64,000 nucleotides of DNA, taken from a virus. Its lineage: Duplodnaviria > Caudoviricetes. Where the stretch lies: IMG/VR virus record IMGVR_UViG_3300040811_001959; one strand, written 5' to 3'. A model generated the notes under the pieces. That model was not told where the DNA came from, ran no database searches, and saw only the letters and a program-made list of their open reading frames with translations. A program made the position numbers and the translations under genes. Positions 23,521 through 39,569 of this stretch are shown piece by piece. Position 1 is the first letter of the stretch. Every line of letters begins with the position of its first letter.

Positions 23521-24176
23521 TAAAAGCCTCCTGAACGACTACCGCTTGATGTTGTTGTTGTGCCTACCTGTGCTTGCACTAATCGTTTAGGTAGTCTGTT
23601 TATTTTAGTAGCAGTGCCTTCTGCATCAAGTGTAAATCTAACAAATGTTTCTTCTTGTCCTTTTGCATCTAGAGTTTTACCATCTGAAAATATAATTTGG
23701 AACGGGTTTAATCTTAAAACTTCTATTTTTACTTCTGCAGGAATACGAGTTCCATATTGTTCAGAACCTATGCCTGGAGTAGTATAATAATGGGCATTGA
23801 CTACATAGTCGCCTGGTTGCAGTGCTCTAAGGGTAACTATTTCTCTGTTAAGATAGATCTTTTCTACCTCGCCATTTGGTAAAGTATAATAATCATTTCT
23901 TACACCTAAATCGTCCTTGTCTAGGTGTGCATGGCCTGCAACAGGGTTTATGTAGCTGACTTTGCCGTTAGGAGTCTCTACCCAAAGGTCAATATCTCCT
24001 TCGTGATCGTCCTGCCAGCTCATTACAATCATAATCTCTGCTTTGTATTCTATTTCAGATGTTTTGGCAGGATTATTAATCAGCAAGAAGCTGATTAGGA
24101 ACAGCATCACAAAACCAAGTATTAAATTGAATAATAAATCTATAAATGCAAGATTTGATACGTAACGTCTATCCAT
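23520..24176 (-). CDS. ExbD/MotB-like single-pass membrane protein
   Basis: short N-terminus, TM helix with conserved Asp (AFIDLLFNLILGF), soluble domain DIDLWV...LDKDD. Confidence 0.6.
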   Translation of the reverse strand: MDRRYVSNLAFIDLLFNLILGFVMLFLISFLLINNPAKTSEIEYKAEIMIVMSWQDDHEGDIDLWVETPNGKVSYINPVAGHAHLDKDDLGVRNDYYTLPNGEVEKIYLNREIVTLRALQPGDYVVNAHYYTTPGIGSEQYGTRIPAEVKIEVLRLNPFQIIFSDGKTLDAKGQEETFVRFTLDAEGTATKINRLPKRLVQAQVGTTTTSSGSRSGGF

Positions 24177-24645
24177 CTACGTGCTCATCCACTAACACCA
24201 GTTGTAACTTTAACAGCACACTCGCAATTAAGCCAACCAGTGTAGTCCATAGAGCAGTTCCCATTCCTGTAGCCATCATACCCAGTGCTTCCTGTACACT
24301 TGCGGTATCTTCTACATTTAAATCTATAAACACTGTGGTTAGCATGTAGATAAATCCTACCACAGTTCCTATCATTCCTAAGCTCAGCATGGTCTCACCG
24401 GCGAACCATTCTGGATTGGTGCTAAAAGTGTATCTGTCTTTATCACGGTCAAATCGGTGTAATCTGTAGCCTAGTCTCAGAGAGAATAAGAAATATAATC
24501 CTATAATAACCCAGCTAATCTTAGTAATGTCACTTTTGTATAGGCTGTCCAGGAATCCAAACGTCCAGCTGAGATACATTACTAATACACTTACACAGAA
24601 TACCGTATACCATTTAAGTCTAGTTTGTACATGTTCGTTCATCAT
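24169..24645 (-). CDS. MotA/TolQ/ExbB proton-channel family protein
   Basis: LGMIGTVVGFI...GMGTALWTTLVGL. Confidence 0.8.
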   Translation of the reverse strand: MMNEHVQTRLKWYTVFCVSVLVMYLSWTFGFLDSLYKSDITKISWVIIGLYFLFSLRLGYRLHRFDRDKDRYTFSTNPEWFAGETMLSLGMIGTVVGFIYMLTTVFIDLNVEDTASVQEALGMMATGMGTALWTTLVGLIASVLLKLQLVLVDEHVDG

Positions 24646-26285
24646 TTATTTATCTCACCCCATTGTTTAAAAGTGTAACACTTGGTATCTACTGTATGTA
24701 TATAATCTGATCTGTCCTGTGTGCGGATGCGACCTTGACCATATACGATGTCATAATCTCTATATGCTACTGGTCTTTGCACTGTAACGTCTATGTATTC
24801 GCCATAGCCTGTGCCTAGTGTTAAGAATGTTACCCAGCGTCCGTTAGTACCACGGAATGCACGACCGTTAGCTACAATACCTGCAAACTCTACACGGTCA
24901 AGCCACTGCTGTCGTACACCAAGCCCGTCCGGAAATCCCTTGTGCCACCAGCCCGGTTCTGCAGGCACTTTCACCCTGTGTGCTTCACAGTTGTATACCC
25001 AGCGCCTATAACTACCTTGACAGTGCTTTAGACATGCTGCCCAGAACTTGCGTTTGTTATGTGCTTTCTGATATGCCAGTGCCCAGATAAGCCGGCCTAG
25101 GTTAACAGCATGCGCCCTGCACAATCCAAAGCCACTTAGCTCTTGCAGTGCTGTAATAGCTTCTTGCTTGCGTGGATGATCTCCTATCCGTTGCATAAAT
25201 TCAAGTATCCTTGAATCGTTCTTCTTTGCAAACGCACGGCGATACATGTCTGCTTCGTAGTTGTCTACATCTATTATATCACTGATAATCTCAATAGCAT
25301 CATCCTCAAACACTATTGTGTCCTGTACTGCTTCTCTGCTCCAGTCGTGGAACATAGCAGCCTTCTGCCTACCTGATAGTGCTACTGGACGTATCAGTGC
25401 AGTAGCAAACACACAATCCTCCACGCTCTGCGGTTGTAGCGCACGGAATAACCTACGCATCGCAGGAGACTCGCCTTGTGTAACACCCAGCACATCTCCC
25501 CTGCACAACAGTTCACTAGTAGCAGGATCCGTGCGTGGATAGTCTGCAAGTGCTGTATCTGGATCTATTTCTAGCAGTTGCGACAGTCCACGATTAGCTA
25601 GGATATCTACCTTAAGGTGCTCTAGGTCTTCTACTTCATATTTGTCCAGCAGTATTTGATTATCTGCTGATATAAGACTTTTGGGTAGCTGGCGTGTAAA
25701 CATTACTACACCGCCACAGTGCTTGCTTATACAACGCTTCTTGCCCAAGAGCTTGCGTTCTATACGTTTGGCTTCCTTAGGATCCACACCCGCAGATTCA
25801 TACGTAAATCCACGCTTTAAAGCTCCTGTAGCACCCAAACGCTTTGCTGCTTCTCTACGTGCGCTCTTTTCTTTATATGTAACGTAGTTGCTTAAACGTG
25901 CAGTCTTACCAGGCCATTTTTTAAATATCCGCTGCATAACTTCATTCTGCCTGTGATGCTCAAAGTCTATGTCAACATCAGGCAAGTCATCACGCATTGG
26001 ATTCATAAAACGTGCAACTGGTATACGCCACAGTACAGGATCAACATCTGTAATACCAAGTAGGTAACAGATGAGGCTAGAGCCTGCGCTGCCACGTGTC
26101 ATGTGGGTAAGATCGTCTGTGAGATCTATTATATCACATATTTGGAGGAAGTAATCTGTGAAGCGTTGATTGAGGATTAGTTCGAATTCTTCTACTAGCC
26201 TTAGCTTGTATTCTTCGCCTTCGGGTACGGGTCTTTTAAAGCGACCCATGAGCCTTTCTATATTATCTAAATCTGTGTTTGCCAT
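24642..26285 (-). CDS. dnaE: DnaE-like (family C) DNA polymerase lacking the PHP domain
   Basis: RGSAGSSLICYLLGITDVDP, PDVDIDF, KHCGGVV, KVDILANRGL, GVTQGES, FGLCRAHA, C-terminal OB-like fold. Confidence 0.85.
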   Translation of the reverse strand: MANTDLDNIERLMGRFKRPVPEGEEYKLRLVEEFELILNQRFTDYFLQICDIIDLTDDLTHMTRGSAGSSLICYLLGITDVDPVLWRIPVARFMNPMRDDLPDVDIDFEHHRQNEVMQRIFKKWPGKTARLSNYVTYKEKSARREAAKRLGATGALKRGFTYESAGVDPKEAKRIERKLLGKKRCISKHCGGVVMFTRQLPKSLISADNQILLDKYEVEDLEHLKVDILANRGLSQLLEIDPDTALADYPRTDPATSELLCRGDVLGVTQGESPAMRRLFRALQPQSVEDCVFATALIRPVALSGRQKAAMFHDWSREAVQDTIVFEDDAIEIISDIIDVDNYEADMYRRAFAKKNDSRILEFMQRIGDHPRKQEAITALQELSGFGLCRAHAVNLGRLIWALAYQKAHNKRKFWAACLKHCQGSYRRWVYNCEAHRVKVPAEPGWWHKGFPDGLGVRQQWLDRVEFAGIVANGRAFRGTNGRWVTFLTLGTGYGEYIDVTVQRPVAYRDYDIVYGQGRIRTQDRSDYIHTVDTKCYTFKQWGEINK

Positions 26286-26350
26286 TGTGCCTTTCTTTGC
26301 CTCTATGGCAAATATTTACTTCCTAGTAGGTGTAAGGCACAATGATCTGA

Positions 26351-27184
26351 TTAGCCTACAAAGGCTTTCTCTACTACATAATCTCCAGGAGTTCCTGTAT
26401 TACCTTCTGCAAATCTATTTGCGTCAAGTATACGTTTTAAGTCTTCATTAAACTCCATACTACCGCAAAGCATTACACGATCTTGTTGAGGATCCATTTC
26501 TCCTAGTAATACCTTATCATTGATAAGTTCTGTAATACGTTTCTGATATCCAATATACAATTCATCTCTAGTTACAATAGGAAATAAATTTAGATCGTAT
26601 CCTGTTAGGTCTGCCCTATATGCTTTAAGCTCGTCTTGCTCTCTTACACTCCATGCTACATTAACTTCTGCGAAAACATTGAAAATATCCTTCTGTCTTA
26701 CTAAGCTCATAAAAGGTGCAATACCTGTTCCTGTTGCAAGTAACCAAAGCCTGCGACCTGGCTTTAGGTTTTCTAATAACAGGGTGCCTGTTGCCTTAGC
26801 GCCTACTTCAACTGTATCACCAGGCTGAATATTTTTTAGCCTTGAAGTAAGTGCTCCGTCAGGCACCTTGATCGAATAAAATTCTAAATGATTATCTTCA
26901 GGAGAACTGGTAATTGAATACGCTCTGCGTACCTTATCACCAAGCCCGATCATTACAAACTCACCTGCTTTAAATGTGTAGTCTACTGGTTTGTCTGTAA
27001 CAAATCTAAACAGTGTATCAGTATAGTGCTGTACTTCTCTAACCATTACAACATGTTTATCGTTTTTTGGTTTTTCCGCAACTTGTTCTGCTTGCAGTAT
27101 TAATAGTTCTGCTTGCCATTCTGCTTCTGATAAAGCATGCCATCCTCTACAAAAATCTGGACTTCGTCCGCATCCACACGCCAT
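26351..27184 (-). CDS. fpr: ferredoxin-NADP+ reductase with N-terminal CDGSH-like Fe-S motif
   Basis: RAYSITS, LEFYSIKVPDGALTSRL, LLATGTGIAPF, MLCGS, VVEKAF; N-terminal CGCGRSPDFCRGWH. Confidence 0.88.
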   Translation of the reverse strand: MACGCGRSPDFCRGWHALSEAEWQAELLILQAEQVAEKPKNDKHVVMVREVQHYTDTLFRFVTDKPVDYTFKAGEFVMIGLGDKVRRAYSITSSPEDNHLEFYSIKVPDGALTSRLKNIQPGDTVEVGAKATGTLLLENLKPGRRLWLLATGTGIAPFMSLVRQKDIFNVFAEVNVAWSVREQDELKAYRADLTGYDLNLFPIVTRDELYIGYQKRITELINDKVLLGEMDPQQDRVMLCGSMEFNEDLKRILDANRFAEGNTGTPGDYVVEKAFVG

Positions 27185-27193
27185 AGTTCTCCT

Positions 27194-28621
27194 TTAGTCT
27201 GTTTCAGTGTTTAGGTTATTTAAGAATTCTTTAAGTTTAGTACTGTCAGTTTTGGCTTTGATCTTACCTACTGTATCTCCTTCTGCAGGATCCTCTCTCA
27301 CGGTTTCCTGTTGTGTTTGTGCAGTCCTTTTGATCTGGTCAAACACTGTGCTCTTACGTTTGTTAAATTCTTGATAGTCTTCGTCCTCGTTCATATCACG
27401 TATACGCAAATTATCAATATCAAATTCTAGATCTACTTTACTACCAACACCACTCGAGTTACGTGTTTTCATTAGCTGTATTTGATATCTACCACGCTCT
27501 CGCATTGCCCTACTTGTAAAGATACCTATCACATTATCTGCAGTTTGTATCTTACTAAGTCCGCCTGATATGTGTGAATGATCAAACTCTATCTCTTCCA
27601 CGCTTGCTCTATTCAGCTGGCTAGCTGTAACAAACAGTGTGTTAGTTTCCATTGCTAGGTTACGTAGTTCCTCACTTACATATTTGTCCTTAACAAACAA
27701 GTTTTCTGCTGATATACGTTTAGCAATAGGCATCATTAGATCTAAATAATCAACAAGTATCACTTCAATCTTACGTCCTGTCTTAACCTCAAACTCTTTA
27801 ATGTAACTACGTAGATCATTTGCAGTCTTACCACTTGGCATATACTTAACTTGGAAAGCACCGGACTTTTTACCTATCATCTTTACTTTCATTTCTACAT
27901 CGTCTATGCTTTTAAATATCTCTCTGCTGGGTATGTCTGTAACCATACTGTCAAGCCTCATGCTTACAATATTCTCACTAAGCTCAAATGTCAAGTACAG
28001 TACATTAAGTCCTGCCAGCGCCCAATTCACTCCTAGATTAGCTAAGAACAAACTCTTACCAGCACCACTACCTCCTGCGAATATATTAAGCTCTCCCCTG
28101 TTAAATCCACCAAACAGTCGCTTATCTAGCGTAGCCCAGCCTGTGCTAACCTGTCCATTACGACTTTTTATTTCTTCTAATCTTGCACGGGGGTCTCTCC
28201 AATAGTCTGTTCCTAGATCTTTCTGTAATCCTATTTGTACTGCTCTCTTAACTAGATCTTCAACAGGTCCATATTCTCCTTTCTCTAGTAAGTCTGCTGA
28301 TTTGAGGATTGCATCTTCTAGTGCTTTATGTCTACTAAATGTTTCAAACTCCTGCAACAACCAATCATAATGTTGTTCTTGTAGTGTACCTGGATTTTTT
28401 AAATCGCATTTAGCGGCAGCATTAATCATGTCAAACGTAGGCAATGCGTTATGCTCTGCTACATAATCCTTTAGGAATTCTGCAGCAGGTTGCAAACGCC
28501 TATCAAACGTCTTTGGTTCAAATACACCTTGACATCTTACATAACTTTCGGCATCTGTAAGGAACATCTCAAGATATACTTTTTGTATATCATAACCGTA
28601 GTCTACATTTTGTCTTGACAT
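27194..28621 (-). CDS. DnaB/T4 gp41-like replicative helicase
   Basis: GFNRGELNIFAGGSGAGKS, ILVDYLDL, TASQLNR, KTRNS. Confidence 0.92.
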   Translation of the reverse strand: MSRQNVDYGYDIQKVYLEMFLTDAESYVRCQGVFEPKTFDRRLQPAAEFLKDYVAEHNALPTFDMINAAAKCDLKNPGTLQEQHYDWLLQEFETFSRHKALEDAILKSADLLEKGEYGPVEDLVKRAVQIGLQKDLGTDYWRDPRARLEEIKSRNGQVSTGWATLDKRLFGGFNRGELNIFAGGSGAGKSLFLANLGVNWALAGLNVLYLTFELSENIVSMRLDSMVTDIPSREIFKSIDDVEMKVKMIGKKSGAFQVKYMPSGKTANDLRSYIKEFEVKTGRKIEVILVDYLDLMMPIAKRISAENLFVKDKYVSEELRNLAMETNTLFVTASQLNRASVEEIEFDHSHISGGLSKIQTADNVIGIFTSRAMRERGRYQIQLMKTRNSSGVGSKVDLEFDIDNLRIRDMNEDEDYQEFNKRKSTVFDQIKRTAQTQQETVREDPAEGDTVGKIKAKTDSTKLKEFLNNLNTETD

Positions 28622-29020
28622 TTATTTTTTGGTTGGCATTGTAAAAAGTGCATTTACTGCATTTTCAGTTGGCTTACGTGCAAACACACACCATTGTAAT
28701 ACTTCTTCATCTGGATAGTTTTCTGCTACATAATCTTGGAAGCTCTTGCCTGTTGTATACACATCATCTACTACAAGCACAGGATCATTTAAGTTTTGAG
28801 TACTGTACTTATCTAGTGCTTTGCCTAGTGCTACGCCACCTCTGGGTATACCTATAGCGGCTCGCCAGTTACGAGGCTCATACTCTCTAATAATATGTGC
28901 AAGGGCTACCCATTCGTCTGGTGATATAGCATCACATTCGATCTTCCAGGTAAGTGGCAAGCCTGCATGGCTAATAAAATTTATTTTTTGGAATAAGTCT
29001 ATGTTAATGTTTTTATTCAT
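28622..29020 (-). CDS. type I phosphoribosyltransferase (OPRTase-like)
   Basis: GIPRGG and LVVDDVYTTGKS PRPP-binding loop. Confidence 0.85.
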   Translation of the reverse strand: MNKNINIDLFQKINFISHAGLPLTWKIECDAISPDEWVALAHIIREYEPRNWRAAIGIPRGGVALGKALDKYSTQNLNDPVLVVDDVYTTGKSFQDYVAENYPDEEVLQWCVFARKPTENAVNALFTMPTKK

Positions 29021-30540
29021 GAAAATACCTTTACATTGTATAGTTTACTAAATTCTTGTGCATCTGTCAATGTGTTTACTATCGGTTTGCCTTTTATATT
29101 GAGACTAGTGTTTAACAACATAGGACAGCCTGTTAGTTCGTACCATCTTTCCAACAACGCTCTAAAACCTGGGTGATCTTGCTTTGTAACTGTTTGAACT
29201 CTGCTGGTTCCGTCTGCGTGGACAATTGCAGGGTATCTTTCAGGATAGCGACAACGTGCGGTGTACTGCATATAACGTCCGAAGGGCGGCTCAAATAAAC
29301 TGGATGCGTGTTCTGCAAGGACTGCAGGTGCGAAGGGACGGAACTTCTGTCTACGTTTAATGGCATTGACTTTATCTTTAATATCCATACGCTGAGGGTC
29401 AGCAAGAAGGCTGCGAGCGCCAAGGCTACGAGGACCGAACTCGGCTCTTCCTGACGCAACCCCTGCAATACCTGTTTGCATAAGTTCTGTAATGATTTCA
29501 TCTACTGGATATTCTCCTTCTATATCATAACCCAGATACGGTCCAGGCCATTCTATATGTGTGCCTCTATGTGCAAGCACTGCTCCTATGCAACTGCCTG
29601 CATCGCCCGGATTAGGCATTATCCAAATGTTACCTTCACCATTCCAGTGTTCAACTATCTTGCTGTTAGCACTGCAATTCAATGCACAACCACCCATAAA
29701 CACTAGGTTACTGCTAGCATATGTCCTAGCTACAGCCTTACTTATCTTAGTTAATATATGCTCATATGCCCATTGCGTTCCTGCTGCTACGTCATACGCC
29801 CATTGTGTAAATTCTTGTTTATCGTCTAAGATATTAAATGCAATCTTAGTAGGTTCCCACCACATGCATCCCCTATGTAGATTGTGCTTTAGCTGGAAGT
29901 TAGGAAGGCGATTAAAAAAGTTTAAATGGTTAGGAAATTGTTCCCAAAAATCGTTTAATATTGTTTCTCCATACTTACCTGCATCTCCATATGCTGCCAT
30001 ACCCATAAGTATGTATTCTTCCTCATTTGGTTTAAGACCTATGCGCTGTGTCATTGCACTATACCAAATACCTATGCTGTTAGGATAGTTCCATGTCCGT
30101 TTACAGGTTAGTTTATCATACTCACCTTCCCACACACTTAGTGTATTCCATTCTCCTATTGCATCTATGACTAGAATTGTTGCATGATCAAATCCACTAG
30201 TATAATATCCCGCTGCTGTATGTGAACGATGATGACCTACTGTTGATATAGGCGATGTTATACCATATTGTGTCAAATATTTTTTTATGCGATTCTTATT
30301 GAATAAATCTTTTTGTCCTGCATACCATTGTCTTGTAGTTTTTAGAAAAGGTTTTTCATACCAAACAATCCTATCAGGCTGCCCCCATTGTAGTGCATAA
30401 TTAATAATACTAGGATTTAAGTGTGCATCATTTTTTTTATGGCTAAATCTTTCTGCATGACTTGCAAATTTTATTTTGTCGTTGTTATGCACACTAATTG
30501 CAGCGTCATGACTATTAGCACTAATTCCCCATGTAATCAT
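29017..30540 (-). CDS. NodU/CmcH-family carbamoyltransferase
   Basis: HDAA, HHRSH, IDAIGE, EYILMGMAAYG, GRAEFGPRSLGARSLLA, IKRRQKFRPFAP, VHADGTSRVQTV, LLNTSLN. Confidence 0.93.
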   Translation of the reverse strand: MITWGISANSHDAAISVHNNDKIKFASHAERFSHKKNDAHLNPSIINYALQWGQPDRIVWYEKPFLKTTRQWYAGQKDLFNKNRIKKYLTQYGITSPISTVGHHRSHTAAGYYTSGFDHATILVIDAIGEWNTLSVWEGEYDKLTCKRTWNYPNSIGIWYSAMTQRIGLKPNEEEYILMGMAAYGDAGKYGETILNDFWEQFPNHLNFFNRLPNFQLKHNLHRGCMWWEPTKIAFNILDDKQEFTQWAYDVAAGTQWAYEHILTKISKAVARTYASSNLVFMGGCALNCSANSKIVEHWNGEGNIWIMPNPGDAGSCIGAVLAHRGTHIEWPGPYLGYDIEGEYPVDEIITELMQTGIAGVASGRAEFGPRSLGARSLLADPQRMDIKDKVNAIKRRQKFRPFAPAVLAEHASSLFEPPFGRYMQYTARCRYPERYPAIVHADGTSRVQTVTKQDHPGFRALLERWYELTGCPMLLNTSLNIKGKPIVNTLTDAQEFSKLYNVKVFS

Positions 30541-30675
30541 TTAATCATATATAAAAGGATCGTCTTCTCTTAATTTTTTTAATTTTTTCCGGTATTTTAT
30601 TTCATCTTTAATCCAGTAATAAGGATAAGATATCCAATACCAAATAATGCTTAATTTTTCTTTTAACCAAACCAT
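30541..30675 (-). CDS. small protein (not in ORF track)
   Basis: manual translation MVWLKEKLSIIWY...KLREDDPFIYD; fills the primase-carbamoyltransferase gap. Confidence 0.55.
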   Translation of the reverse strand: MVWLKEKLSIIWYWISYPYYWIKDEIKYRKKLKKLREDDPFIYD

Positions 30676-31643
30676 TTTTTTGCCCTTAAATTTATTTTTA
30701 AATTAGATGTTTCTATTGCGGTGATAATACTGTATAAAGTTAACATCCTACCGTATTTATGTACAGCGTCACCTATGTCATTTATATCTTTACTCCACAT
30801 AGGAAAACTTACACTCCAGCCTAGATCTATTGCTTGGTTGATTAATTTTTTTCCAGCAGGATCTCTGTCCGGTATTATAATTTTTTCAGTTTCTAATGAA
30901 TTTAATAATAATGCCTGACCAGTTGATATTTCAGATCCTAAAATACTAGTAGCGCCAATAAGTAGTGCATCAATAGGGCCTTCGCAAACTAGTGTAAGTT
31001 TATAATTTTCTTTTTGCTGGTCTAGCCCAAAAACATATCCAGGCTGTGAATTGGTTATATATTTTGGTTTTTTATTTTGTGTTGTACGTGCTGTATAACC
31101 AACAATTTCATTTTCATAATAAAAAGGAATAATTAATCTATCTCTATATCCTATTTTACTAGACCAATAAAAATTTGTATCATTAAAATCTAATCCTCTA
31201 TTTACAATATATTCTATAATTGGAATTAAATTTTTATCAACACTAATAGAATCGTTAATACAAACAACATTATCTGGTAGTTTTATTTTTTTAAATGCTG
31301 GTACTTTGATATCATGCAGTTTTGATTTTTTATTATCAATTTGTTTTAATAAATCTAAGGCGAGTTGATTAATTGTAGTATCAGGAACGCCAATCCAACT
31401 TAAAAAATTTTTAAATTTTAAAGAAAGATTACGTCCAGCTTGCCAGCTACATTTAAAACCACAATTAAAGCAGTGATAAGTTACACCTTCGTCGCCATTT
31501 ATAATTAAACCGCCGCGACCTCTTGTATCCTGTGCGTGTCCATTATAATGACAACACGGGGCATTAAAACTTATCCAACCACTAGGTGTAATTTTTTTCT
31601 TTGCTGGTATGTGTACAGATACAATATTAGATACAATGCTCAT
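30663..31643 (-). CDS. DNA primase (T4 gp61-like)
   Basis: N-terminal Zn-binding CC...YHCFNC; RLIIPF, VCEGPIDA, PDRDPAG, DIGD TOPRIM motifs. Confidence 0.88.
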   Translation of the reverse strand: MSIVSNIVSVHIPAKKKITPSGWISFNAPCCHYNGHAQDTRGRGGLIINGDEGVTYHCFNCGFKCSWQAGRNLSLKFKNFLSWIGVPDTTINQLALDLLKQIDNKKSKLHDIKVPAFKKIKLPDNVVCINDSISVDKNLIPIIEYIVNRGLDFNDTNFYWSSKIGYRDRLIIPFYYENEIVGYTARTTQNKKPKYITNSQPGYVFGLDQQKENYKLTLVCEGPIDALLIGATSILGSEISTGQALLLNSLETEKIIIPDRDPAGKKLINQAIDLGWSVSFPMWSKDINDIGDAVHKYGRMLTLYSIITAIETSNLKINLRAKKWFG

Positions 31644-31649
31644 ATTTTA

Positions 31650-31678
31650 ATTATAGCAAAGTAACTATCGTTTGTCAA
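31650..31678 (-). promoter_or_regulatory. consensus sigma70 promoter of the primase/helicase operon
   Basis: TTGACA-17-TATAAT with TG extension on the - strand. Confidence 0.75.
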
Positions 31679-31679
31679 G

Positions 31680-32057
31680 TTAATGATTTAGTTTTACACT
31701 ATTAACAGAACCATCAGTCCACGATGTTATTAAACATCTAACCCATACAAAATTACCAGTAAAGTTATACATTTTACTACTGGTTTCATTTACAAGATAT
31801 TCAACATAATTCGATATTGTATTTGTAGTCACATCTGTTATGTTAACTGTAAACCAATCTTCGTCTGCAGGATCGGTAGCTAGTGATGCTTGTATTTCTA
31901 CTTTACCTAAGAATCCTGTGAGCACAACTTGTACGGTATGGAAGCCATCTGCACGACCATAATAACCATCGCCTTTAAATTTTTCACTTGTAATAGTTTG
32001 TTCTGAACTGTCTCCCGGGTGCGTCTGGGTTGCTATAATAGTTTCACTTGTTGCCAT
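31680..32057 (-). CDS. putative virion structural protein
   Basis: beta-rich; GKVEIQASLATDP...FTGNFVWVR resembles the C-terminus of the upstream protein. Confidence 0.55.
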   Translation of the reverse strand: MATSETIIATQTHPGDSSEQTITSEKFKGDGYYGRADGFHTVQVVLTGFLGKVEIQASLATDPADEDWFTVNITDVTTNTISNYVEYLVNETSSKMYNFTGNFVWVRCLITSWTDGSVNSVKLNH

Positions 32058-32065
32058 ACCTATTC

Positions 32066-32830
32066 CTAATTCCTTACTAAAATTTTTGTTACGGTATCAT
32101 TTGGTGATGCAGTTGTCTTAAATCGTAAGTAGTTGTATACGCCTCTAAAATTAAAATAAGCAGGCATTGTTTCTGTACCATCAAATGTTATCGTGTTTAT
32201 CGGTGCCCAACTAGTATCTTCATTAATGTTTACATCAAGTGTAGCTTCTAGTGTTGCATTACCTACATAATTGTTTGTATATATTGCTGCTGTATGTAAA
32301 GCTTCGTTACCGTTGAGAGCAGGTTCTGCTGATATGGCCTCACTAATCCATTCTGTATTGTCTTGTACAAAAGTAGATACAGTGTGCGGTTCTGCTGGTC
32401 CTGGAAATGCATAATCGTCAACAAACAGAGTGGCATTGTTATCAAAATTACTATCTGCGAAGGTTAAATGATTATCACCTTCTAAATCTGTAAGATAGAT
32501 ATTGTAACGTAAGTACTGTCTTTGAATGTTTAATAAATCATTTTCTGTAATGTTAATCTCAAATTTACCTTTAGCTCCATCTTGTACAGTGCCTACTCTT
32601 CTTATAACTTGTCTTTTTGTTTCGTCAAACGCTACAAATGTAGGCATATAATCGGTTATATCCATTGGTTTTTGATCTGCATTAACTATTTTAAATTGTA
32701 TTTTATTGTCAATACCCCGGTAGGCTTTTATCTGTCTACTATACACTGGCATGTACTCCGTGTCAAATCCTGTTTCATTTGTTACAATTATAATTGTATT
32801 TTTTACTAAATATCTTGGTATAAGCTGCAT
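32066..32830 (-). CDS. putative virion structural protein
   Basis: start MQLIPRYL after TAAATA; beta-rich; C-terminal domain similar to the next gene. Confidence 0.55.
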   Translation of the reverse strand: MQLIPRYLVKNTIIIVTNETGFDTEYMPVYSRQIKAYRGIDNKIQFKIVNADQKPMDITDYMPTFVAFDETKRQVIRRVGTVQDGAKGKFEINITENDLLNIQRQYLRYNIYLTDLEGDNHLTFADSNFDNNATLFVDDYAFPGPAEPHTVSTFVQDNTEWISEAISAEPALNGNEALHTAAIYTNNYVGNATLEATLDVNINEDTSWAPINTITFDGTETMPAYFNFRGVYNYLRFKTTASPNDTVTKILVRN

Positions 32831-32861
32831 ATTATATTTATTAGAAAGAATACTATTATTA

Positions 32862-33236
32862 ATGCTACGAAAAGATATAGAAGAAAAGTATCCGTTTATA
32901 AGTTTAATACAATATGGTGGTAAAGAATATGTTGGAATTATAGTAAACCAAGATTCATTTATTACCACTATTTTAGATTATTCTATCTTAAAAAATCTAA
33001 AAGATAAAAAATTTTTTCTACAATTAGGAGAAATGTGGTGGATGGAAAGTAATCGAATGATTCCTATTACAATCTTTTTACGACATGATATAGTTCCATT
33101 AAAATATTGTTTAAAAAATTTGAATACAAAAGATGTTGATATAATTATTGGTCCTACAGTCAATTTAGGAAGTCTTCATTTAAAACGTGTTAAGCGGAAA
33201 AGTATTCAAATGGTAAGGAAACCAAAAAAAAATTAA
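32862..33236 (+). CDS. conserved hypothetical protein
   Basis: start MLRKDIEEKYPF; lone + strand gene; GEMWWMESNRMIPI. Confidence 0.65.
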   Translation: MLRKDIEEKYPFISLIQYGGKEYVGIIVNQDSFITTILDYSILKNLKDKKFFLQLGEMWWMESNRMIPITIFLRHDIVPLKYCLKNLNTKDVDIIIGPTVNLGSLHLKRVKRKSIQMVRKPKKN

Positions 33237-33856
33237 AAATAATTTCCGTAAACTCTATAGTCTTCTTTATATAAATTTTTTATTTTATCCACTTCATCTT
33301 TTCTAATATCAAAAAACTCAACTGCAAAAGAATTTTTGTAAAACACATTAGGAATATTTTCTGTAAGTGAAACATTTTCTACTAATGGAATAAATTTATC
33401 ACCTATATTTTTTGTTAAAATTATTTCAGTATATATAGACGGATCGCTACCATAAGACGTTATTAAAGAACGGGTGTGATTTCTGATGTCACGATAATTT
33501 AGAATAATTGTTTCATACTCGTTGACAAATTGTGTAAACGATTTTACTGTTTGTTTTATATGATCTTTATTCCTTTGTAGGACTCTATCCTTGTATGCAC
33601 TTACAAATCTCTCAACAGGGTCTCTGATTATTGCAACTCTGGTTGTAAAAGAAAAAATTTGGTCTTTTGATAATTTGACAATTTGGCCATTTGCCCAATT
33701 TTTAGTTGGAATTTTTCTAGTATCTTTTCTAAATTTAAAAGATCCTAAAAATGGATAACCTAATATAGTTATTACAGAACTTGATCCACATTTATTAGCA
33801 ACTGTAACCAAAATTTTATTTTTATTATTAAAAGTAACTAGATAAGTATCTTTCAT
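33233..33856 (-). CDS. sulfotransferase family 2 protein
   Basis: KCGSSS (5'-PSB) and RDPVERFVSAY (3'-PB) PAPS-binding motifs. Confidence 0.8.
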   Translation of the reverse strand: MKDTYLVTFNNKNKILVTVANKCGSSSVITILGYPFLGSFKFRKDTRKIPTKNWANGQIVKLSKDQIFSFTTRVAIIRDPVERFVSAYKDRVLQRNKDHIKQTVKSFTQFVNEYETIILNYRDIRNHTRSLITSYGSDPSIYTEIILTKNIGDKFIPLVENVSLTENIPNVFYKNSFAVEFFDIRKDEVDKIKNLYKEDYRVYGNYF

Positions 33857-34416
33857 TTACTGATTACATTTTCGCAAATTAAATTCATGTGTACAGTAAT
33901 TGCAACTGCATAAGATATTGCATGAGCTTTTTTAAAATAGTATTTATTGTCATCAGGTTTCGACCATACTTCTGATAGTATGGTACTCCAATTTTCATTC
34001 AATAGATATCTCTTTGCAGGTCTAATTATAGCAAGTACAGCAGCAAGTTGTTCTATGTTTTTAGGTTTAAGTTTTTTACAAATTTCTGAATGTCCTGATA
34101 AATGGAAAAGTAAATCAACAAATTCTTTGTGTTCTAATAATTCCCACAATGGTTCTTTTTCCATTAAACGAATTAAATGTTCTTCATCATTTACATCTTT
34201 GTAAATTGAAACATTTAGGAAATCTAATTTAAAATATCCTCTATCTTCTGCTTGTTTATAATCAATTGAAGCATAATTATTAATAGGATTATGCGGAATT
34301 TCTGTTACGTATATCCCAGTATTATGTTTTTTTGTGTCATCAATAGTTGCAATCCGATGTTCTATTTTTGAAAGAATATTATTCCTATCTGCAAAATCTA
34401 TATCAATATCAGGCAT
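33853..34416 (-). CDS. miniature DnaE-like (family C) polymerase core
   Basis: PDIDIDF, KHNTGIY, KLDFLNV, VLAIIRP, YFKKAHAISYA within 187 aa. Confidence 0.78.
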   Translation of the reverse strand: MPDIDIDFADRNNILSKIEHRIATIDDTKKHNTGIYVTEIPHNPINNYASIDYKQAEDRGYFKLDFLNVSIYKDVNDEEHLIRLMEKEPLWELLEHKEFVDLLFHLSGHSEICKKLKPKNIEQLAAVLAIIRPAKRYLLNENWSTILSEVWSKPDDNKYYFKKAHAISYAVAITVHMNLICENVISK

Positions 34417-34417
34417 G

Positions 34418-34774
34418 CTATTCTATGTATAAAATTATATTAGGATATAAAACCATTAAACTTATCCAAAGCCATAATGTATTAAAACTAACAAGCGTAG
34501 GCAACAGTTTTTTATTGCTTGCCCATATTAATGTTGCACTTGTAAATAGACTTAAAAAATATAATTGCCAAATTTGTATTTTCCATAATAGTCCAGGTAT
34601 AATAATAATAGCTTTTGTAAACCAACTTGCAGCTTCGATTATATTATAATTAGTCCAATACTTTTTTGTAAACCATAATTTATAACAATTTATTATTTCC
34701 TTCCACCCAGTAAAGGTGTAGAGTAAAATTGTAAATAATAACCAAATAATAATAATGATAATAACATTAGGCAT
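34418..34774 (-). CDS. integral membrane protein
   Basis: 3-4 hydrophobic helices. Confidence 0.65.
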   Translation of the reverse strand: MPNVIIIIIIWLLFTILLYTFTGWKEIINCYKLWFTKKYWTNYNIIEAASWFTKAIIIIPGLLWKIQIWQLYFLSLFTSATLIWASNKKLLPTLVSFNTLWLWISLMVLYPNIILYIE

Positions 34775-35264
34775 AATGTTTTTGTATTTTTTTTGCTTTT
34801 TTATTAGCCATTTTCCAAACTAGTGGGGATACACGATCTTTAAAAGTAATACCCTGTAAGTGATCATATTCGTGCAAAAATACTTTAACACTATAATCTT
34901 TTAAATGTGTTCTTTTCTTTTCTAAGTTTTCATCATAATACTCTACTAGGATTTCTTTTGGTCGTTTTACTTGTGCAAATACATTTGGAAAACTTAAACA
35001 GCCTTCTATGTCAATAACAATTTCTTTTGTGTGCTGAAGTACAACAGGGTTAATTAAAATCGAGTTATTCTCTTTACCGTCTCCCATAACAAACAATTGT
35101 GCATCTAAACCAATCTGATTCGCTGATAATCCAATTCCATTGTTACTTAACATAAATTCTACCATTTCATTTTTTAAGTCTACTGGATTAAAATCTACGT
35201 TATCGATATTAACCGAATTGACTTTTTTAGATAGAAATTCGTCTGGATAATATACAAGTTTCAT
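34767..35264 (-). CDS. def: peptide deformylase
   Basis: GIGLSANQIG, EGCLSFP, HEYDHLQG. Confidence 0.95.
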   Translation of the reverse strand: MKLVYYPDEFLSKKVNSVNIDNVDFNPVDLKNEMVEFMLSNNGIGLSANQIGLDAQLFVMGDGKENNSILINPVVLQHTKEIVIDIEGCLSFPNVFAQVKRPKEILVEYYDENLEKKRTHLKDYSVKVFLHEYDHLQGITFKDRVSPLVWKMANKKAKKIQKHYA

Positions 35265-35965
35265 AGTCTACTTTCTTTAATAATTTGTTTTGCTAATTCT
35301 AAATCTTTTGTTTGTCTTTTAAATTTTAGTGCCCAGTGTTCAGGATCAACAATATGATATATCATTTTTAATTGCTCTTCATTAAATTTATCAAGCATTT
35401 GTTTACCGCTGGTGCTATTTAAAACAATCCAAGGAGAAATTTTTCCATCTTTAATATGATATACAGCTCTGTTTGTACTAACTAAATTAAAATAATGATT
35501 CCATACTGCTGGCGGATTTTCTTCGGCCCATTCAGTCATTGTAAGTACACTACGTTCTAGCGCAGTAGTTACATCTTCTTTTTTAATAAGCTCAATTGCG
35601 TAACGTTCATATAATTCTTCTTTACACCATTGTTCTAACTTCACGCCACTTGTTACAACATAGTCTACATACTTTTCTGGATATAGTGGTTTGACATTGT
35701 TAAGGAAGCTACCAAATTTTACAAAACTGTTGTAGTATGGACTCTTGCAAAATTCTTCATACGTCTTATCTTTCTTAGAGCCCATACTACGTTTGTAAAA
35801 TTGATTAAATGCATAGAAGCCTAACTGTACCCTTTTCTCATCTCGCTGTAACGCTCTGCGTTTCTTTTCGCATAAATGTGCAAAAAGTGTTTTTTCTCGT
35901 GTGTATGATGTGTTACAGTATTCGCAGGTATACTTAGAGTTTGATGTCAAGCGCATGATCCTCAA
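35261..35965 (-). CDS. hypothetical protein with N-terminal C2H2/C2HC-like Zn finger
   Basis: CEYC...LFAHLC. Confidence 0.7.
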   Translation of the reverse strand: MRIMRLTSNSKYTCEYCNTSYTREKTLFAHLCEKKRRALQRDEKRVQLGFYAFNQFYKRSMGSKKDKTYEEFCKSPYYNSFVKFGSFLNNVKPLYPEKYVDYVVTSGVKLEQWCKEELYERYAIELIKKEDVTTALERSVLTMTEWAEENPPAVWNHYFNLVSTNRAVYHIKDGKISPWIVLNSTSGKQMLDKFNEEQLKMIYHIVDPEHWALKFKRQTKDLELAKQIIKESRL

Positions 35966-36386
35966 TTAGCTGTTTAATTTCATCCTCTGTAGACAATTGA
36001 GCTAGCAATTCAATTTCGTCTGCCTTTCTTTCAGGATAAATTTTTGTAAGTATTTTTTCAAACTTTCCGGTCACGTTTGTGACATTTGATTTTAATCCTT
36101 GCCATTTATGGAATTCTATTTTGCCTGTGTTTCCGCATAAGCATAATAACTGCCATTGTAGTTCCTGATGTGAACTAACAACCATATAGTTTTTGTTATA
36201 GTATTCGTTTGTTTTTAAGACAGCAAGTTCCTGTTTTTCTCTTTTTCCTGCAACACTTGAAGCATATCTATTCATTAACCAAAAGGATATACCTTTTTTA
36301 GATTCGTCATCTAATTCTTTCCAAACAGATTTTGCGCCCATATCAACTGCAGCAAGAATATCTTTTACTGGTAGTTTATTAGCCAT
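35934..36386 (-). CDS. possible clamp-loader small subunit (gp62-like)
   Basis: size, helical composition, FWLMNRYAS pattern and replication context; family call tentative. Confidence 0.4.
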   Translation of the reverse strand: MANKLPVKDILAAVDMGAKSVWKELDDESKKGISFWLMNRYASSVAGKREKQELAVLKTNEYYNKNYMVVSSHQELQWQLLCLCGNTGKIEFHKWQGLKSNVTNVTGKFEKILTKIYPERKADEIELLAQLSTEDEIKQLIEDHALDIKL

Positions 36387-36397
36387 AATATATATTA

Positions 36398-36904
36398 CTA
36401 TATAAGATTACAAAAATCAATGACTTCAGTTTGTCTCGATACATCCTTTACAAAAAAAGCACACAATGGATTATCATCGTTATTTAATGGAACAGATAAA
36501 AGTTGACCATTTTTCATTTTTGGAAAGTACCATTTTACATCATTGTAAAAATTTGTAATTTTTATTTCTCCATAATCTGCTTTAAAACTTTTTAATGGAT
36601 TGAACAAGAATGCATCAAAGCCTCTGTCGTTTAAACTCGTTAAAGGTAGTATTTCTAAATCTTTACCTGTATTACGATCACCCACAGCAATATGCCAATC
36701 AACTGGCATGATAATTTCATTTCCGTTGATATCCATAGCTATAGCAGGACTACTAAAAGATTCTAAAAAGATTAATGGAATAAAAAAGAAATCAGGATCC
36801 GACGGGTCACTGTTATCTAGTACACTAAATCTAAAATCTTCTTCGATTTCATCTGGTAAATTATTAAGATCATAAGTTTTGTTTTCTAATGTAAGTATTC
36901 TCAT
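36398..36904 (-). CDS. conserved hypothetical protein
   Basis: 168-aa ORF coupled to the helicase. Confidence 0.65.
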   Translation of the reverse strand: MRILTLENKTYDLNNLPDEIEEDFRFSVLDNSDPSDPDFFFIPLIFLESFSSPAIAMDINGNEIIMPVDWHIAVGDRNTGKDLEILPLTSLNDRGFDAFLFNPLKSFKADYGEIKITNFYNDVKWYFPKMKNGQLLSVPLNNDDNPLCAFFVKDVSRQTEVIDFCNLI

Positions 36905-38391
36905 TGCCAGTCAACCTTTTCTATTGTAAATGGATATTGAGCGTCTCTATAAAATTTTTTCCGCTCTGTTAAATGTCTTTTTGCAAATTTGCAAGTACTA
37001 GTAAAATCCCAAATCTGTACAAAGTCTTTGTCCTTAGCTTTACGAACTCCTCGTCCAATTGATTGTATTACCCGAACAAAACTTTTGCCAGGTTCAATTA
37101 AAACAAGATTAAAAATACGAGGAATATTGATCCCCACAGCAGCAACCCCGTAAGTTGCAACGATAACCATATTGTCTGCATCTTGAATTTCATCATAAGC
37201 TGATTTTCTGTCCTTTAATTTTACATCACCTTTTATAAAAATTGAATTTTCTATACGTTCATGCAAAAGTTCGCCCGCACTAATACGATCAATTAATATA
37301 AGTGTGTTACCAGATTCCTTAATCTTATTTAACATTTTAGCAATGTAGTTTACACGATTTTCTTCGGTTACAAGATATTTTAATTCGCTTTGATAGTCTC
37401 TGTGTGCAACTGTGTCTATTAGCTGTACAATGTTTACATGACAGTTAGACAGTACACCTTTGTCCTGCAATTCTTTAGCTGTAATCTGTCCAATAACAGG
37501 TCCTATACTTGCGTGTAGTGCTTCGAATTCAAAACGTTCTTTAGGCACTGTACCTGTTAGTCCCCAACGTATCGGAGCATTACGTAGGTTGCGTGTAAGC
37601 AAATTCTTCAAGACCTCGGCCTTTGCTTGATGCACTTCGTCAATTATTATTGTGCTTACACCGTCTAAGAACTCTGCAAGTGTCAATACTGCTGTACCGT
37701 CTTTACTTTTCTTATCTAGTATGTTGAGACTTTGCCAAGTGCATATGGTATGTGTTTTGGATAGGTCTTTCCTATCGCCAAAGTATACGCCGCAGTCCAG
37801 CCCGCAATTTCGGTAATCTTCTTCAGTTTGTTGCACAAGAGATTTGTTTGGAACAACGACAAGTGTTCGTCCATATTTTTCCGCTATGTGTGAGAGTGTT
37901 GCGGTGGTAATAGTTTTACCAGCGCCTGTTGCAATCTCCTGTAGAGACTGCGGATTCTTAACAAAATTATTTATAGCTTCTACTTGATAATCTCTTAATA
38001 CAATATCTTCACCTGCTGCAGGATGTCCTTCAGGCCATTTTACTCCTTGTTGTTTCCAATAGTCTTCTGTTATAGGTTGGAAGTCTAGTGTAACAGGATG
38101 CCTGCGATCTTCTATGTCAGAGATCTCTACATTATTGTTTTGCAATATCTCTACGATTGTATTGAGATGATTGACGTATCCTGTACCGCCTATACCAAAA
38201 AATGCTACCTTTCCATCCCATCTACCGAGTTTATACTGCGGCATGTAACGTGCATATGGTACTTCAAATTTAAGTGCATTTGCAAGTTTCCTACGTATCT
38301 CAACTGGAAGTCCTTCTAACTTAATATTGACTTCATCTTCGATAATTAATTTACATGATGTCATATTTCTGTTGTTTTTTGATGAATCCAA
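36901..38391 (-). CDS. uvsW: SF2 helicase, UvsW-like
   Basis: LRDYQ, ATGAGKT, IIIDEVH, GLTGT, ATYGVAAVGINIP, QSIGRGVR. Confidence 0.88.
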   Translation of the reverse strand: MDSSKNNRNMTSCKLIIEDEVNIKLEGLPVEIRRKLANALKFEVPYARYMPQYKLGRWDGKVAFFGIGGTGYVNHLNTIVEILQNNNVEISDIEDRRHPVTLDFQPITEDYWKQQGVKWPEGHPAAGEDIVLRDYQVEAINNFVKNPQSLQEIATGAGKTITTATLSHIAEKYGRTLVVVPNKSLVQQTEEDYRNCGLDCGVYFGDRKDLSKTHTICTWQSLNILDKKSKDGTAVLTLAEFLDGVSTIIIDEVHQAKAEVLKNLLTRNLRNAPIRWGLTGTVPKERFEFEALHASIGPVIGQITAKELQDKGVLSNCHVNIVQLIDTVAHRDYQSELKYLVTEENRVNYIAKMLNKIKESGNTLILIDRISAGELLHERIENSIFIKGDVKLKDRKSAYDEIQDADNMVIVATYGVAAVGINIPRIFNLVLIEPGKSFVRVIQSIGRGVRKAKDKDFVQIWDFTSTCKFAKRHLTERKKFYRDAQYPFTIEKVDWQ

Positions 38392-39569
38392 GTAGTAGGT
38401 TGAGTATCAAAGTGAATGACTAGTTCACATTTATTATAATATGTTGACACAAGTCTGCTATGTCTTATACTAGCTAAAAGTAATGTTGTGGTTGGCTGCC
38501 ATTTACTAATAAGTAAAGGCTTAGGAAGTTTTTCATTATTAATAATAATTACCTGTGTTGCTTCTGTAATTTTGTTATTTAATTTAAACTTTTTTACATT
38601 TTCGTTAAAGTCGATATTATTTCCAGATATGTTGTCTAGTCTAAACAGTACGCTTATGTCTTTTATATCTATGAATTTTTGTAAACTGTCTATCAAATCA
38701 ACTAGATCTTGATTTTCTTGTCCTTTAGATAAAATTACTAACAAAGGAAATCTTTTAAGTTCATTTATTACATTACACACATCAAAAAAAGTATGTATAA
38801 TTTTTGACATGAATATATTTTTATTTTCAAGTTTTGCAATTTTTTCTGCCAATGGCGTAAGCATCGAAAATGATCTATTTAATTCGTTACTATCAAATAA
38901 ATTTAATCCAAGAATATCTTTCCTGTCATAATATAATGCAAGATTTTTTACAGTAGGAACTCCTAAGATTTTTATTGCATATTCTTCAGCAATTTTTGAT
39001 GTATTGACAAATTTATAATTTACAATACCCGGTATAAAATCATTTTTAGACTCAATAAATTTTTGTATAATATTATAAAAATTTAGCAATTCTTCATCAA
39101 TTTCAAAATTACATTCTTTTAATCTATCTACAATTTCAAATACATTCTTCTCATTTAATTTTAAAAAATGAGTTTTCGATTTACTATCATAATCATTCCT
39201 ATCTTGCAAAGATTTTATAAAATTTATATGCTTTATCATTTTATTAGAGTAAGGAAATGTAATTCCTATCATTACTTTCTTTTCATTATCAAATAAAGTA
39301 AACGACTCTTTTTCAACCAAAAAAACTTTTTTAGATCTGTCTATTTCTCTATAGGGATGTCTTAAATTATCTAATCCGTCATTAATATCATAACCATTTT
39401 TTGAGAACTCTTTTTCATATTCTTTTACCTTCTTTTTTGCCAAGGAATGCTGTCTATCAGTTAAACCTATGTTTTTTTTAATTTGACTTGATAAACTAGT
39501 AATTAATTTTCTATCTCGTGTGTCAACATCTAATGTTGATAATATTTCAATATAATCTTCAATAGTCAT
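38361..39569 (-). CDS. hypothetical protein
   Basis: 402-aa ORF upstream of the helicase. Confidence 0.7.
   Translation of the reverse strand: MTIEDYIEILSTLDVDTRDRKLITSLSSQIKKNIGLTDRQHSLAKKKVKEYEKEFSKNGYDINDGLDNLRHPYREIDRSKKVFLVEKESFTLFDNEKKVMIGITFPYSNKMIKHINFIKSLQDRNDYDSKSKTHFLKLNEKNVFEIVDRLKECNFEIDEELLNFYNIIQKFIESKNDFIPGIVNYKFVNTSKIAEEYAIKILGVPTVKNLALYYDRKDILGLNLFDSNELNRSFSMLTPLAEKIAKLENKNIFMSKIIHTFFDVCNVINELKRFPLLVILSKGQENQDLVDLIDSLQKFIDIKDISVLFRLDNISGNNIDFNENVKKFKLNNKITEATQVIIINNEKLPKPLLISKWQPTTTLLLASIRHSRLVSTYYNKCELVIHFDTQPTTWIHQKTTEI

Follow-up and report, generated by a model that had tools for sequence, protein, structure and literature searches.

A 187-residue protein of an uncultured jumbo phage is very probably the metal-binding half of a split minimal C-family polymerase and is encoded alongside a compact DnaE-like enzyme

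Overview

We analyzed a 64,000-nucleotide stretch (hereafter, the window) of the virus record IMGVR_UViG_3300040811_001959, focusing on an open reading frame (ORF) of 187 amino acids (aa) with motifs of the bacterial replicase DnaE, the alpha subunit of DNA polymerase III (Pol III). The 187-aa protein is very probably the metal- and template-binding half of a heterodimeric C-family nucleotidyltransferase of ~370 aa, the partner of which is known from relatives. We observed its family membership, its fold, the conservation of its catalytic residues, the partner gene in related genomes and one natural fusion of the two. The window also encodes a second, single-chain DnaE-like polymerase of 547 aa, and the co-residence of this compact enzyme with the split one, conserved in related assemblies, is the new point of the present analysis.

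In the mechanism that we propose, the 187-aa protein (the C unit) would be the C subunit of a two-piece, intein-free minimal polymerase of the C family (DnaE-type, with a Pol-beta-like nucleotidyltransferase fold), an enzyme typical of group 2.2 (RaK2/PA5oct/Atu_ph07-like) jumbo phages. The C unit would supply the strands carrying the three metal-binding Asp residues (D3, D5 and D65) together with a reduced finger module. The first strand, the GS loop that binds the triphosphate and the helices around them would come from a second protein of ~185 aa (the N unit), encoded far off and outside the window. These halves would then assemble by strand complementation, with strand VWGVG of the N unit lying against strand IDIDF of the C unit in the ~370-aa enzyme.

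The 187-aa protein belongs to an abundant family with invariant catalytic residues

The N-terminus of the 187-aa protein reads M-P-D-I-D-I-D-F (M1-P2-D3-I-D5-I-D7), and the motifs that follow keep the order found in DnaE: PDIDIDF at residues 2-8, KHNTG at 30-34, KLDFL at 63-67, AIIRP at 129-133 and FKKAHAISYA at 161-170. This motif set is far above chance level: the protein matched phrog_11778 ("DNA polymerase") with an E value of 2.6e-63, residues 3-186 falling on profile positions 8-197 of 197, and Pfam returned a finger match only, below threshold. In an alignment of 80 family members with 31-89% identity, D3, D5, D7, K63, D65, R132 and P133 were invariant, and H31, G34, K135, K162 and H165 were nearly so. 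The catalytic residues of E. coli Pol III alpha are D401, D403 and D555. A PDB search with the family profile returned DnaE chains only, and three collinear pieces of the profile aligned to E. coli DnaE, at residues 399-406 (MPDFDVDF), 540-641 (with K553-F-D555 and FRPG) and 740-767 (FNKSH). The ordered DnaE motifs reported for this ORF by a first-pass annotation of the window, a model's reading of the DNA, were therefore confirmed by the end-to-end phrog_11778 match and the invariance of the catalytic residues.

Homologs of the C unit were found by tblastn in 96 phage records at 39-51% identity and ≥90% coverage, all of them jumbo phages (RaK2, PA5oct, Atu_ph07, Phosso, XacN1-like and SCTP-2 type) that carry it as a separate gene of ~180-213 aa within the block from UvsW to the primase-helicase genes. 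In RaK2 (ORF124), Atu_ph07 (gp074) and Phosso (gene 437), this gene stands alone and encodes 164-213 aa. We counted at least 547 C-unit loci in IMG/VR and at least 8000 homologous clusters (90% identity) in a large protein collection, where the best 120 listed were 185-202 aa long. Because the same length recurs across these abundant relatives, thousands in number, the 187-aa ORF is not a recent frameshifted remnant, an outcome that the first-pass annotation had named as fatal to its own reading. A candidate longer form of the C unit, P0367 (233 aa), contained only the first ~115 C-unit residues joined to unrelated sequence and was not used. A promoter scan near the C unit gave 43 sites versus 40 expected by chance and was thus uninformative.

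The C unit folds as a C-family polymerase core that lacks the first strand and GS loop

An AlphaFold2 (AF2) model of the C unit, built from the 80-sequence alignment, had a mean predicted local distance difference test (pLDDT) score of 96 and a predicted template modelling (pTM) score of 0.87. The best 16 Foldseek matches to this model were all DnaE-type Pol III alpha, with PolC further down. A VIA search, which is independent of sequence alignment, placed C-family polymerases, PolC included, in all of the top seven ranks, with Z scores of 9.6 for Mycobacterium tuberculosis (Mtb) DnaE1 (5lew), 9.4 for PolC (3f2b), 9.4 for Taq DnaE (2hpi) and 7.4-7.7 for E. coli DnaE; the next unrelated match reached 4.1. 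In these superpositions, 184-185 of the 187 residues were aligned, spanning residues 400-784 in E. coli. The C unit thus corresponds to the part of a C-family polymerase that runs from the DxD motif to the fingers, with ~200 residues removed, among them the thumb and a finger insert. The structure and profile alignment to E. coli DnaE, proposed earlier as a check, accordingly yielded collinear motifs, a confident fold and C-family polymerases at the top of the ranking.

Other parts of the replicase were missing. Neither Pfam nor the structural alignment placed PHP, thumb, clamp-binding, OB or tau-binding domains in the C unit. In DnaE, the DxD strand is preceded by a helix-strand-GS-loop-helix element that holds the triphosphate of the incoming nucleotide. 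The GS (GRGS) motif is not present in the 187-aa ORF, and the N-unit profile gave no significant match there. The ORF carries the catalytic Asp triad and superposes on the palm and fingers of a C-family core, but a full Pol-beta-like palm, which takes both the GS loop and the DxD strand, is not present within this single chain. Because the chain starts at the DxD strand, without the first strand and the GS loop, the C unit cannot form the palm alone.

In relatives, a distant gene encodes the missing half of the palm

Searching the genomes of RaK2, Atu_ph07 and Phosso with PF07733 revealed one extra small ORF in each, of 175-180 aa, covering profile positions 18-98 only. In these three phages, the C-terminus of the small protein reads ..GVGRGSS..EFL[N/E/K], just before the point at which PDxDxD stands in DnaE. 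The N-unit end, ..GVGRGS..EFL[R/N] at PF07733 position 98, is the exact point where the C unit begins. The two genes lie 33 kb apart in RaK2, 182 kb in Atu_ph07 and 224 kb in Phosso. Both units were also present in three long environmental contigs, G002 (237 kb), G003 (236 kb) and G012 (275 kb), so that the distance across the six relatives ranges from 31 to 224 kb and the N-unit ORF from 175 to 185 aa; in G003, one gene is found towards either end of the contig, a distance of 224 kb on the linear sequence or ~6 kb around the circle. N units are as abundant as C units, with at least 8000 clusters of 177-187 aa carrying PF07733, and the GRGS loop is invariant in their family. After the N unit, G003 (L087:2071-3220) and G002 (L088:2068-3221) encode a small basic protein, a GroES-like co-chaperonin and a MazG-like pyrophosphatase; the window has none of the three. 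A partner had been proposed earlier among the neighboring ORFs that start at 35261, 35934 and 36398; in relatives, the N unit is instead encoded far from the C unit. The idea of a miniature C-family catalytic module that needs a partner thus stood, albeit in altered form, as the first-pass annotation had missed that this ORF makes up just one part of a split gene, with the GRGS strand located elsewhere.

One natural single-chain form joins the two units. P0350 (375 aa; L273:1066-2193) matches the N unit over residues 6-180 (hhalign probability 99.5) and the C unit over residues 190-372, and the TIGR00594 alignment runs unbroken over the junction. At the catalytic strand, P0350 carries ADFDID instead of PDIDID.

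We modelled the complex from the G003 N unit (43-sequence alignment) and the C unit of the window (80-sequence alignment) in three runs, with three controls. The ipSAE interface score was 0.92, 0.91 and 0.92 in the three runs and 0.00 in the best control; 58 of 80 solved complexes and 2 of 110 mismatched pairs reach this mark. The runs shared ≥97% of contacts, with a partner pLDDT of 91. In the predicted interface, N-unit residues 146-159 (the strand and the GRGS loop) touch C-unit residues 2-9 (the DxDxD strand), and this predicted strand pairing would be the neighbor relation expected in a Pol-beta-like sheet. We therefore infer that the two units assemble physically. No intein halves were found at the split junction: the C unit has nothing before P2-D3 but the initiating Met, and the N units end in EFL[R/N]. 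As neither end leaves room for intein halves, the association must be non-covalent.

Likely role of the split enzyme and alternative explanations

The strict conservation of the metal ligands and of the GS loop argues for catalysis. Since thumb, clamp-binding, OB and PHP domains are absent, a distributive and accessory role next to a family-B polymerase (PolB) seems more fitting. We infer DNA polymerase activity, and the split enzyme would most likely act as a distributive auxiliary in gap-filling or repair synthesis beside the phage PolB.

Several points weigh against this interpretation. The N unit was not found in the 64-kb window by phmmer, by a maximum-sensitivity hidden Markov model search or by tblastn; the sub-significant matches in the window all fell on the palm of the 547-aa ORF. 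G004 (262 kb, 73% complete) has a C unit with no N unit detected, and may simply be incomplete. The fused form P0350 was found only once, on a 2.4-kb metagenome contig. The score of the modelled complex may reflect the memory that the prediction model has of solved single-chain DnaE structures, and the N unit used was that of a relative, G003, whose C unit is 67% identical to that of the window. Processive DNA synthesis is doubtful for an enzyme that lacks a thumb and duplex-binding domains, and the split enzyme may perform some other nucleotidyl-transfer reaction. Finally, our literature search on the split enzyme yielded only the 2021 computational paper discussed below and no later experimental work.

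Other explanations account for part of these observations. A self-sufficient 187-aa polymerase, in which the ORF alone forms the palm active site, perhaps with help from the products of neighboring genes, could be argued from the presence of the three catalytic Asp residues and the finger motifs on one chain and from the confident folding of the 187-aa model by itself. We consider it extremely unlikely, given that the ORF lacks the elements that come before the DxD strand in DnaE (the first strand, the GS loop and the helices ahead of them in the Pol-beta-like fold), that the gene supplying them co-occurs in every sufficiently complete relative apart from the incomplete G004, and that P0350 fuses that very gene to the C unit. 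The loss of thumb, clamp-binding and PHP domains would also suit a catalytically idle remnant or decoy, which might be a DnaE fragment co-opted to bind or inhibit the replisome of the host, or might have a structural or regulatory function. Yet D3, D5, D7, K63, D65 and R132 are invariant down to 31% identity, as is the GRGS loop of the partner; this is the conservation pattern of an active site, whereas a decoy would keep interaction surfaces rather than metal ligands, and such a function appears highly unlikely.

It is barely credible that the C unit partners the 547-aa enzyme in place of the N unit, for instance as an accessory or alternative catalytic lobe, even though the two genes lie ~8 kb apart in one replication block, both in the window and in three other assemblies. 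The C-unit family is far wider (at least 547 versus 165 loci in IMG/VR), RaK2, Atu_ph07, Phosso, G002, G003 and G012 have both C and N units but no 547-aa gene, and the 547-aa protein owns a complete palm. Pairing of the C unit with a distant N unit therefore remains the explanation that we favor.

A compact single-chain DnaE-like polymerase co-resides with the split enzyme

The 547-aa ORF matched PF07733 (E value 8e-41, 140.8 bits, profile positions 14-260) and PF17657, DNA_pol3_finger (E value 3e-16, 59.7 bits), and aligned to residues 325-461 and 605-810 of Mtb DnaE1 (E value 3e-31). Pfam gave no match to PHP (PF02811) in this ORF, where the PF07733 match begins as early as residue 15, at profile position 14. 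The Pfam and sequence results are in line with the earlier description of an ORF that carries the same motifs plus RGSAG and has no PHP domain. With ~25% identity over 116 aa between them, the 187-aa and 547-aa ORFs are not two halves of one gene, as previously stated. The identity of the 547-aa protein to N units is ~21%, and the protein is far closer in sequence to bacterial DnaE. At such low identities, it is neither a recent paralog of the split enzyme nor the product of joining its two pieces.

The C-terminus of the 547-aa enzyme is plausibly, albeit weakly, OB-like. In the AF2 model, five strands lie at residues 464-537 with a local pLDDT of ~50-80, and Foldseek ranked SSB, PriB and LysRS OB folds just behind polymerases at root-mean-square deviations of 3-5 Å. 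An atlas lead (0.89) pointed to a cluster with PF01336 in 22% of its proteins, and Pfam found no OB domain in the last 108 and 180 residues at E values up to 10. The OB-like fold proposed earlier is thus plausible as a fold, with no Pfam domain behind it and a low-confidence model. The mean pLDDT of the whole 547-aa model was 58, which we attribute to a shallow alignment (74-89% identity), and the model served for coarse fold ranking only.

The 547-aa family is abundant in marine and marsh data, with 165 loci in IMG/VR, lengths of 542-558 aa and members that are ~80% identical, Tara Oceans members included. Other phage DnaE-like proteins measure 931-1161 aa and have a long N-terminal region; among those inspected, a similarly short form was found only in an uncultured 484-kb phage, at 34% identity. 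The first-pass annotation had proposed a DnaE2-like, possibly mutagenic enzyme. The best NCBIfam match of the ORF was indeed the DnaE2 model NF004225, and some JGI records of the family carry an automatic DnaE2 name. The score of 172 bits, however, falls far below the cut-off of 939 and barely exceeds the 150-163 bits obtained with ordinary DnaE models, and no ImuA/ImuB-like genes were found among the immediate neighbors scanned (an FNR-like reductase, a DnaB-like helicase and a MotA/ExbB-like protein). An assignment to DnaE2/ImuC is therefore not supported.

The 547-aa gene lies one or two genes downstream of the DnaB-type helicase gene in the window, in L097 (a 265-kb scaffold) and in L098 (a 23.5-kb Logan contig). 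Between the helicase and the 547-aa gene, positions 26351-27184 encode a protein that resembles ferredoxin-NADP reductases (FAD_binding_6, NAD_binding_1), has a Cys-rich N-terminus and is also found in L098. On the other side, a MotA/TolQ/ExbB-like gene and two more membrane genes (23014-24645) overlap the stop of the 547-aa gene, in an order identical to that of L098.

The 547-aa gene and the C unit are collinear in three other independent assemblies, G011, L098 and L097. The C units of L097 and L098 are 73% and 70% identical to that of the window. As the window runs collinear with both G011 and L098 between ~20 and 37 kb, the coexistence of the two genes is not an assembly artefact. The 547-aa gene is not in G002, G003 or G012, although these have the syntenic neighborhood, together with PolB and the N and C units; we therefore regard it as an accessory of a subclade. 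It was acquired by that subclade beside the helicase-primase genes, and the enzyme probably acts as an additional, helicase-associated polymerase.

In metatranscriptomes of salt marsh and marsh, two of which were DNase-treated, contigs span the 547-aa gene as well as the helicase region, with 90-100% identity. This cover is compatible with expression, but contigs cannot prove transcription. The same contigs nearly miss the more divergent stretch at 30.5-34.5 kb that includes the C unit, where missing cover proves nothing.

Comparison with known polymerases

In its catalytic fold, Asp triad and collinear finger motifs, the C unit resembles bacterial DnaE (2HNH, 2HPI, 5LEW) and PolC (3F2B). The domain limits of E. 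coli DnaE are reportedly those of Lamers et al. 2006. In contrast to these enzymes, the C unit retains ~185 of the ~385 residues between E. coli positions 400 and 784, lacks the thumb, most of the fingers and the PHP, clamp-binding, OB and tau-binding domains, and has the N half of its palm on a separate protein.

In cyanobacteria, an intein-split dnaE is divided between two distant genes whose products are joined by trans-splicing. The phage enzyme likewise has its coding sequence spread over two distant genes; unlike the cyanobacterial one, it is split inside the palm core, and its halves would associate non-covalently.

The 547-aa enzyme shares palm, thumb and finger homology, at 26-30% identity, with single-chain DnaE-like proteins of phrog_405, such as gp54 of Streptomyces phage VieEnRose (1161 aa) and orf29 of Cronobacter phage Ss1 (931 aa). 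It differs from them in that it is about half the size, starts at the palm and has no N-terminal PHP region. The uncultured 484-kb phage, at 34% identity, is the nearest relative of the enzyme among catalogued phages. Its likeness to DnaE2/ImuC lies in the best NCBIfam match and in automatic names, and it departs from that group in score and in gene neighbors.

In jumbo phages of group 2.2, a split minimal Pol III alpha has been described computationally (Iyer, Anantharaman, Krishnan, Burroughs & Aravind 2021, Viruses 13:63, PMC7824862, sections 3.4.1 and 3.5). According to that study, it accompanies a family B polymerase, the phages with the split version have no other Pol III domains, and an auxiliary gap-filling or repair role beside the PolB replicase was proposed (PMC7824862). 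The C unit of the window agrees with this system (phrog_11778; RaK2 ORF124, Atu_ph07 gp074) in family, size, PDxDxD start and position between UvsW and the primase-helicase genes, and is 39-51% identical to its cultured members; the N unit of relatives is distant there as well. It differs in that the window represents an uncultured salt-marsh/marine lineage, in which the family is very abundant, and in that its genome also carries the second, single-chain DnaE-like gene. The split core has thus been known computationally since 2021, and the window adds a marsh/marine member.

The co-resident compact DnaE contradicts the generalization that such phages have no other Pol III parts (PMC7824862), and, with up to three polymerases in one phage replisome, invites the question of how they share the work. 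No C-family polymerase core smaller than the two-piece mini-Pol III is known, and this enzyme has been put forward as a model for the ancestor of the bacterial replicase. Its extreme abundance in marine and marsh viromes, the defined split point inside the nucleotidyltransferase core (between GS loop and DxD strand), the natural fusion, the confident fold and the predicted interface make reconstitution in vitro straightforward to design. On a bolder and rather unlikely reading, the subclade may run three polymerases of two unrelated families, namely PolB, the two-piece mini-Pol III and the compact PHP-less DnaE beside the helicase-primase genes. The DnaE may then be a replicase coupled to the helicase, dividing the strands with PolB, or may even have taken the place of PolB; the two-piece enzyme would serve as a distributive specialist. 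If true, bacterial-type and archaeo-eukaryotic-type replisomes would be naturally combined in such a phage.

Genome context

The window is of the group 2.2 jumbo-phage type: it holds a T4-like replication and packaging set, comprising UvsW, gp32-like and UvsX/RecA-like proteins, a DnaB/gp41-like helicase, a primase and a T4-type TerL, and its source contig, a JGI contig with exact copies of both polymerase proteins, measures 273,945 bp. The order of the block around the C unit, namely UvsW, small conserved unknowns, a small membrane/virion protein, the C unit, primase and DnaB-type helicase, is the same in the window as in RaK2, Atu_ph07 and Phosso. Coordinates are given in Table 1.

Table 1. 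Features of the two polymerases and of the surrounding replication block in the 64-kb window
Feature	Position	Strand	Basis
Probable C-terminal (Mg2+/template-binding) unit of split minimal Pol III alpha, 187 aa	33853..34416	(-)	phrog_11778, AF2, VIA
D3-x-D5-x-D7, equivalents of E. coli D401/D403/D405 (two catalytic Asp)	34396..34410	(-)	Invariant in 80-sequence alignment; profile vs E. coli 399-406 MPDFDVDF
K63-L-D65-F-L, equivalent of E. coli K553/D555 (third catalytic Asp)	34216..34230	(-)	K63, D65 invariant; profile vs 2hnh 540-641
AIIRP finger motif (R132, P133), equivalent of E. coli ..FRPG ~638-641	34018..34032	(-)	R132, P133 invariant; profile alignment
FKKAHAISYA finger motif, equivalent of E. 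coli F756-N-K758-S-H760..	33907..33936	(-)	K162, H165 nearly invariant; profile vs 2hnh 740-767
Separate single-chain PHP-less compact DnaE-like polymerase, 547 aa	24642..26285	(-)	PF07733, PF17657, Mtb DnaE1 match
RGSAG (residues 64-68), GS nucleotide-binding motif in cis, 547-aa enzyme	26082..26096	(-)	Sequence; invariant in family alignment
PDVDIDF (residues 102-108), 547-aa enzyme	25962..25982	(-)	Sequence; aligned to Mtb DnaE1 PDIDIDF
KVDIL (residues 225-229), third catalytic Asp, 547-aa enzyme	25599..25613	(-)	Sequence; K225, D227 invariant in family alignment
Probable OB-like beta-barrel (residues 464-537), C-terminus of 547-aa enzyme	24675..24896	(-)	AF2 strands, Foldseek
DnaB/gp41-type replicative helicase	27194..28621	(-)	PF03796, E value 4e-21
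DNA primase (Toprim)	30663..31643	(-)	phrog_47, E value 1.9e-39
UvsW-type helicase, opens conserved block UvsW ... C unit ... primase-helicase	36901..38391	(-)	ResIII, Helicase_C, UvsW_N

No family-B polymerase is encoded within the 64-kb window. In G002, G003 and G012, a PolB of ~890 aa lies 21-30 kb from the N unit; its distance to the C unit is 120-150 kb, or ~36 kb when measured around the circle. As PolB stands so far from the C unit in these relatives, its absence from the window is expected and uninformative about the genome. The IMG/VR contigs that carry the 547-aa gene (13-29% complete) showed no PolB, and the N-unit search found only the 547-aa palm in them. The earlier remark that this T4-like phage has no gp43 therefore holds for the window but not as a trait of the genome.

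The third-position GC content (GC3) was 0.24-0.41 for genes between 23 and 30.5 kb, the 547-aa gene standing at 0.38, versus 0.14-0.22 for those at 30.6-35 kb. DNA identity to G011 was 96% over 23014-29024 and 70-72% over 30541-34417, and 83-89% afterwards. The GC3 drop together with this switch in identity suggests recombination between related phages at ~30.5 kb.

Beside UvsW, a 402-aa ORF (38361-39569) occupies the slot of the annotated "DNA polymerase exonuclease subunit" of RaK2; it has no Pfam or PHROG match and a very low GC content of 0.25. Between UvsW and the C unit, three conserved unknowns (35261-36904) matched phrog_11279, phrog_11758 and phrog_11058, the last with an N-terminal C2H2-like zinc finger; RaK2 has similar-sized genes in this slot, and they are candidate replisome accessories. 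Three genes of the auxiliary-metabolism type are interspersed in the region: a carbamoyltransferase between primase and helicase (29017-30540), a sulfotransferase directly downstream of the C unit (33233-33856) and a peptide deformylase two genes upstream of it (34767-35264).

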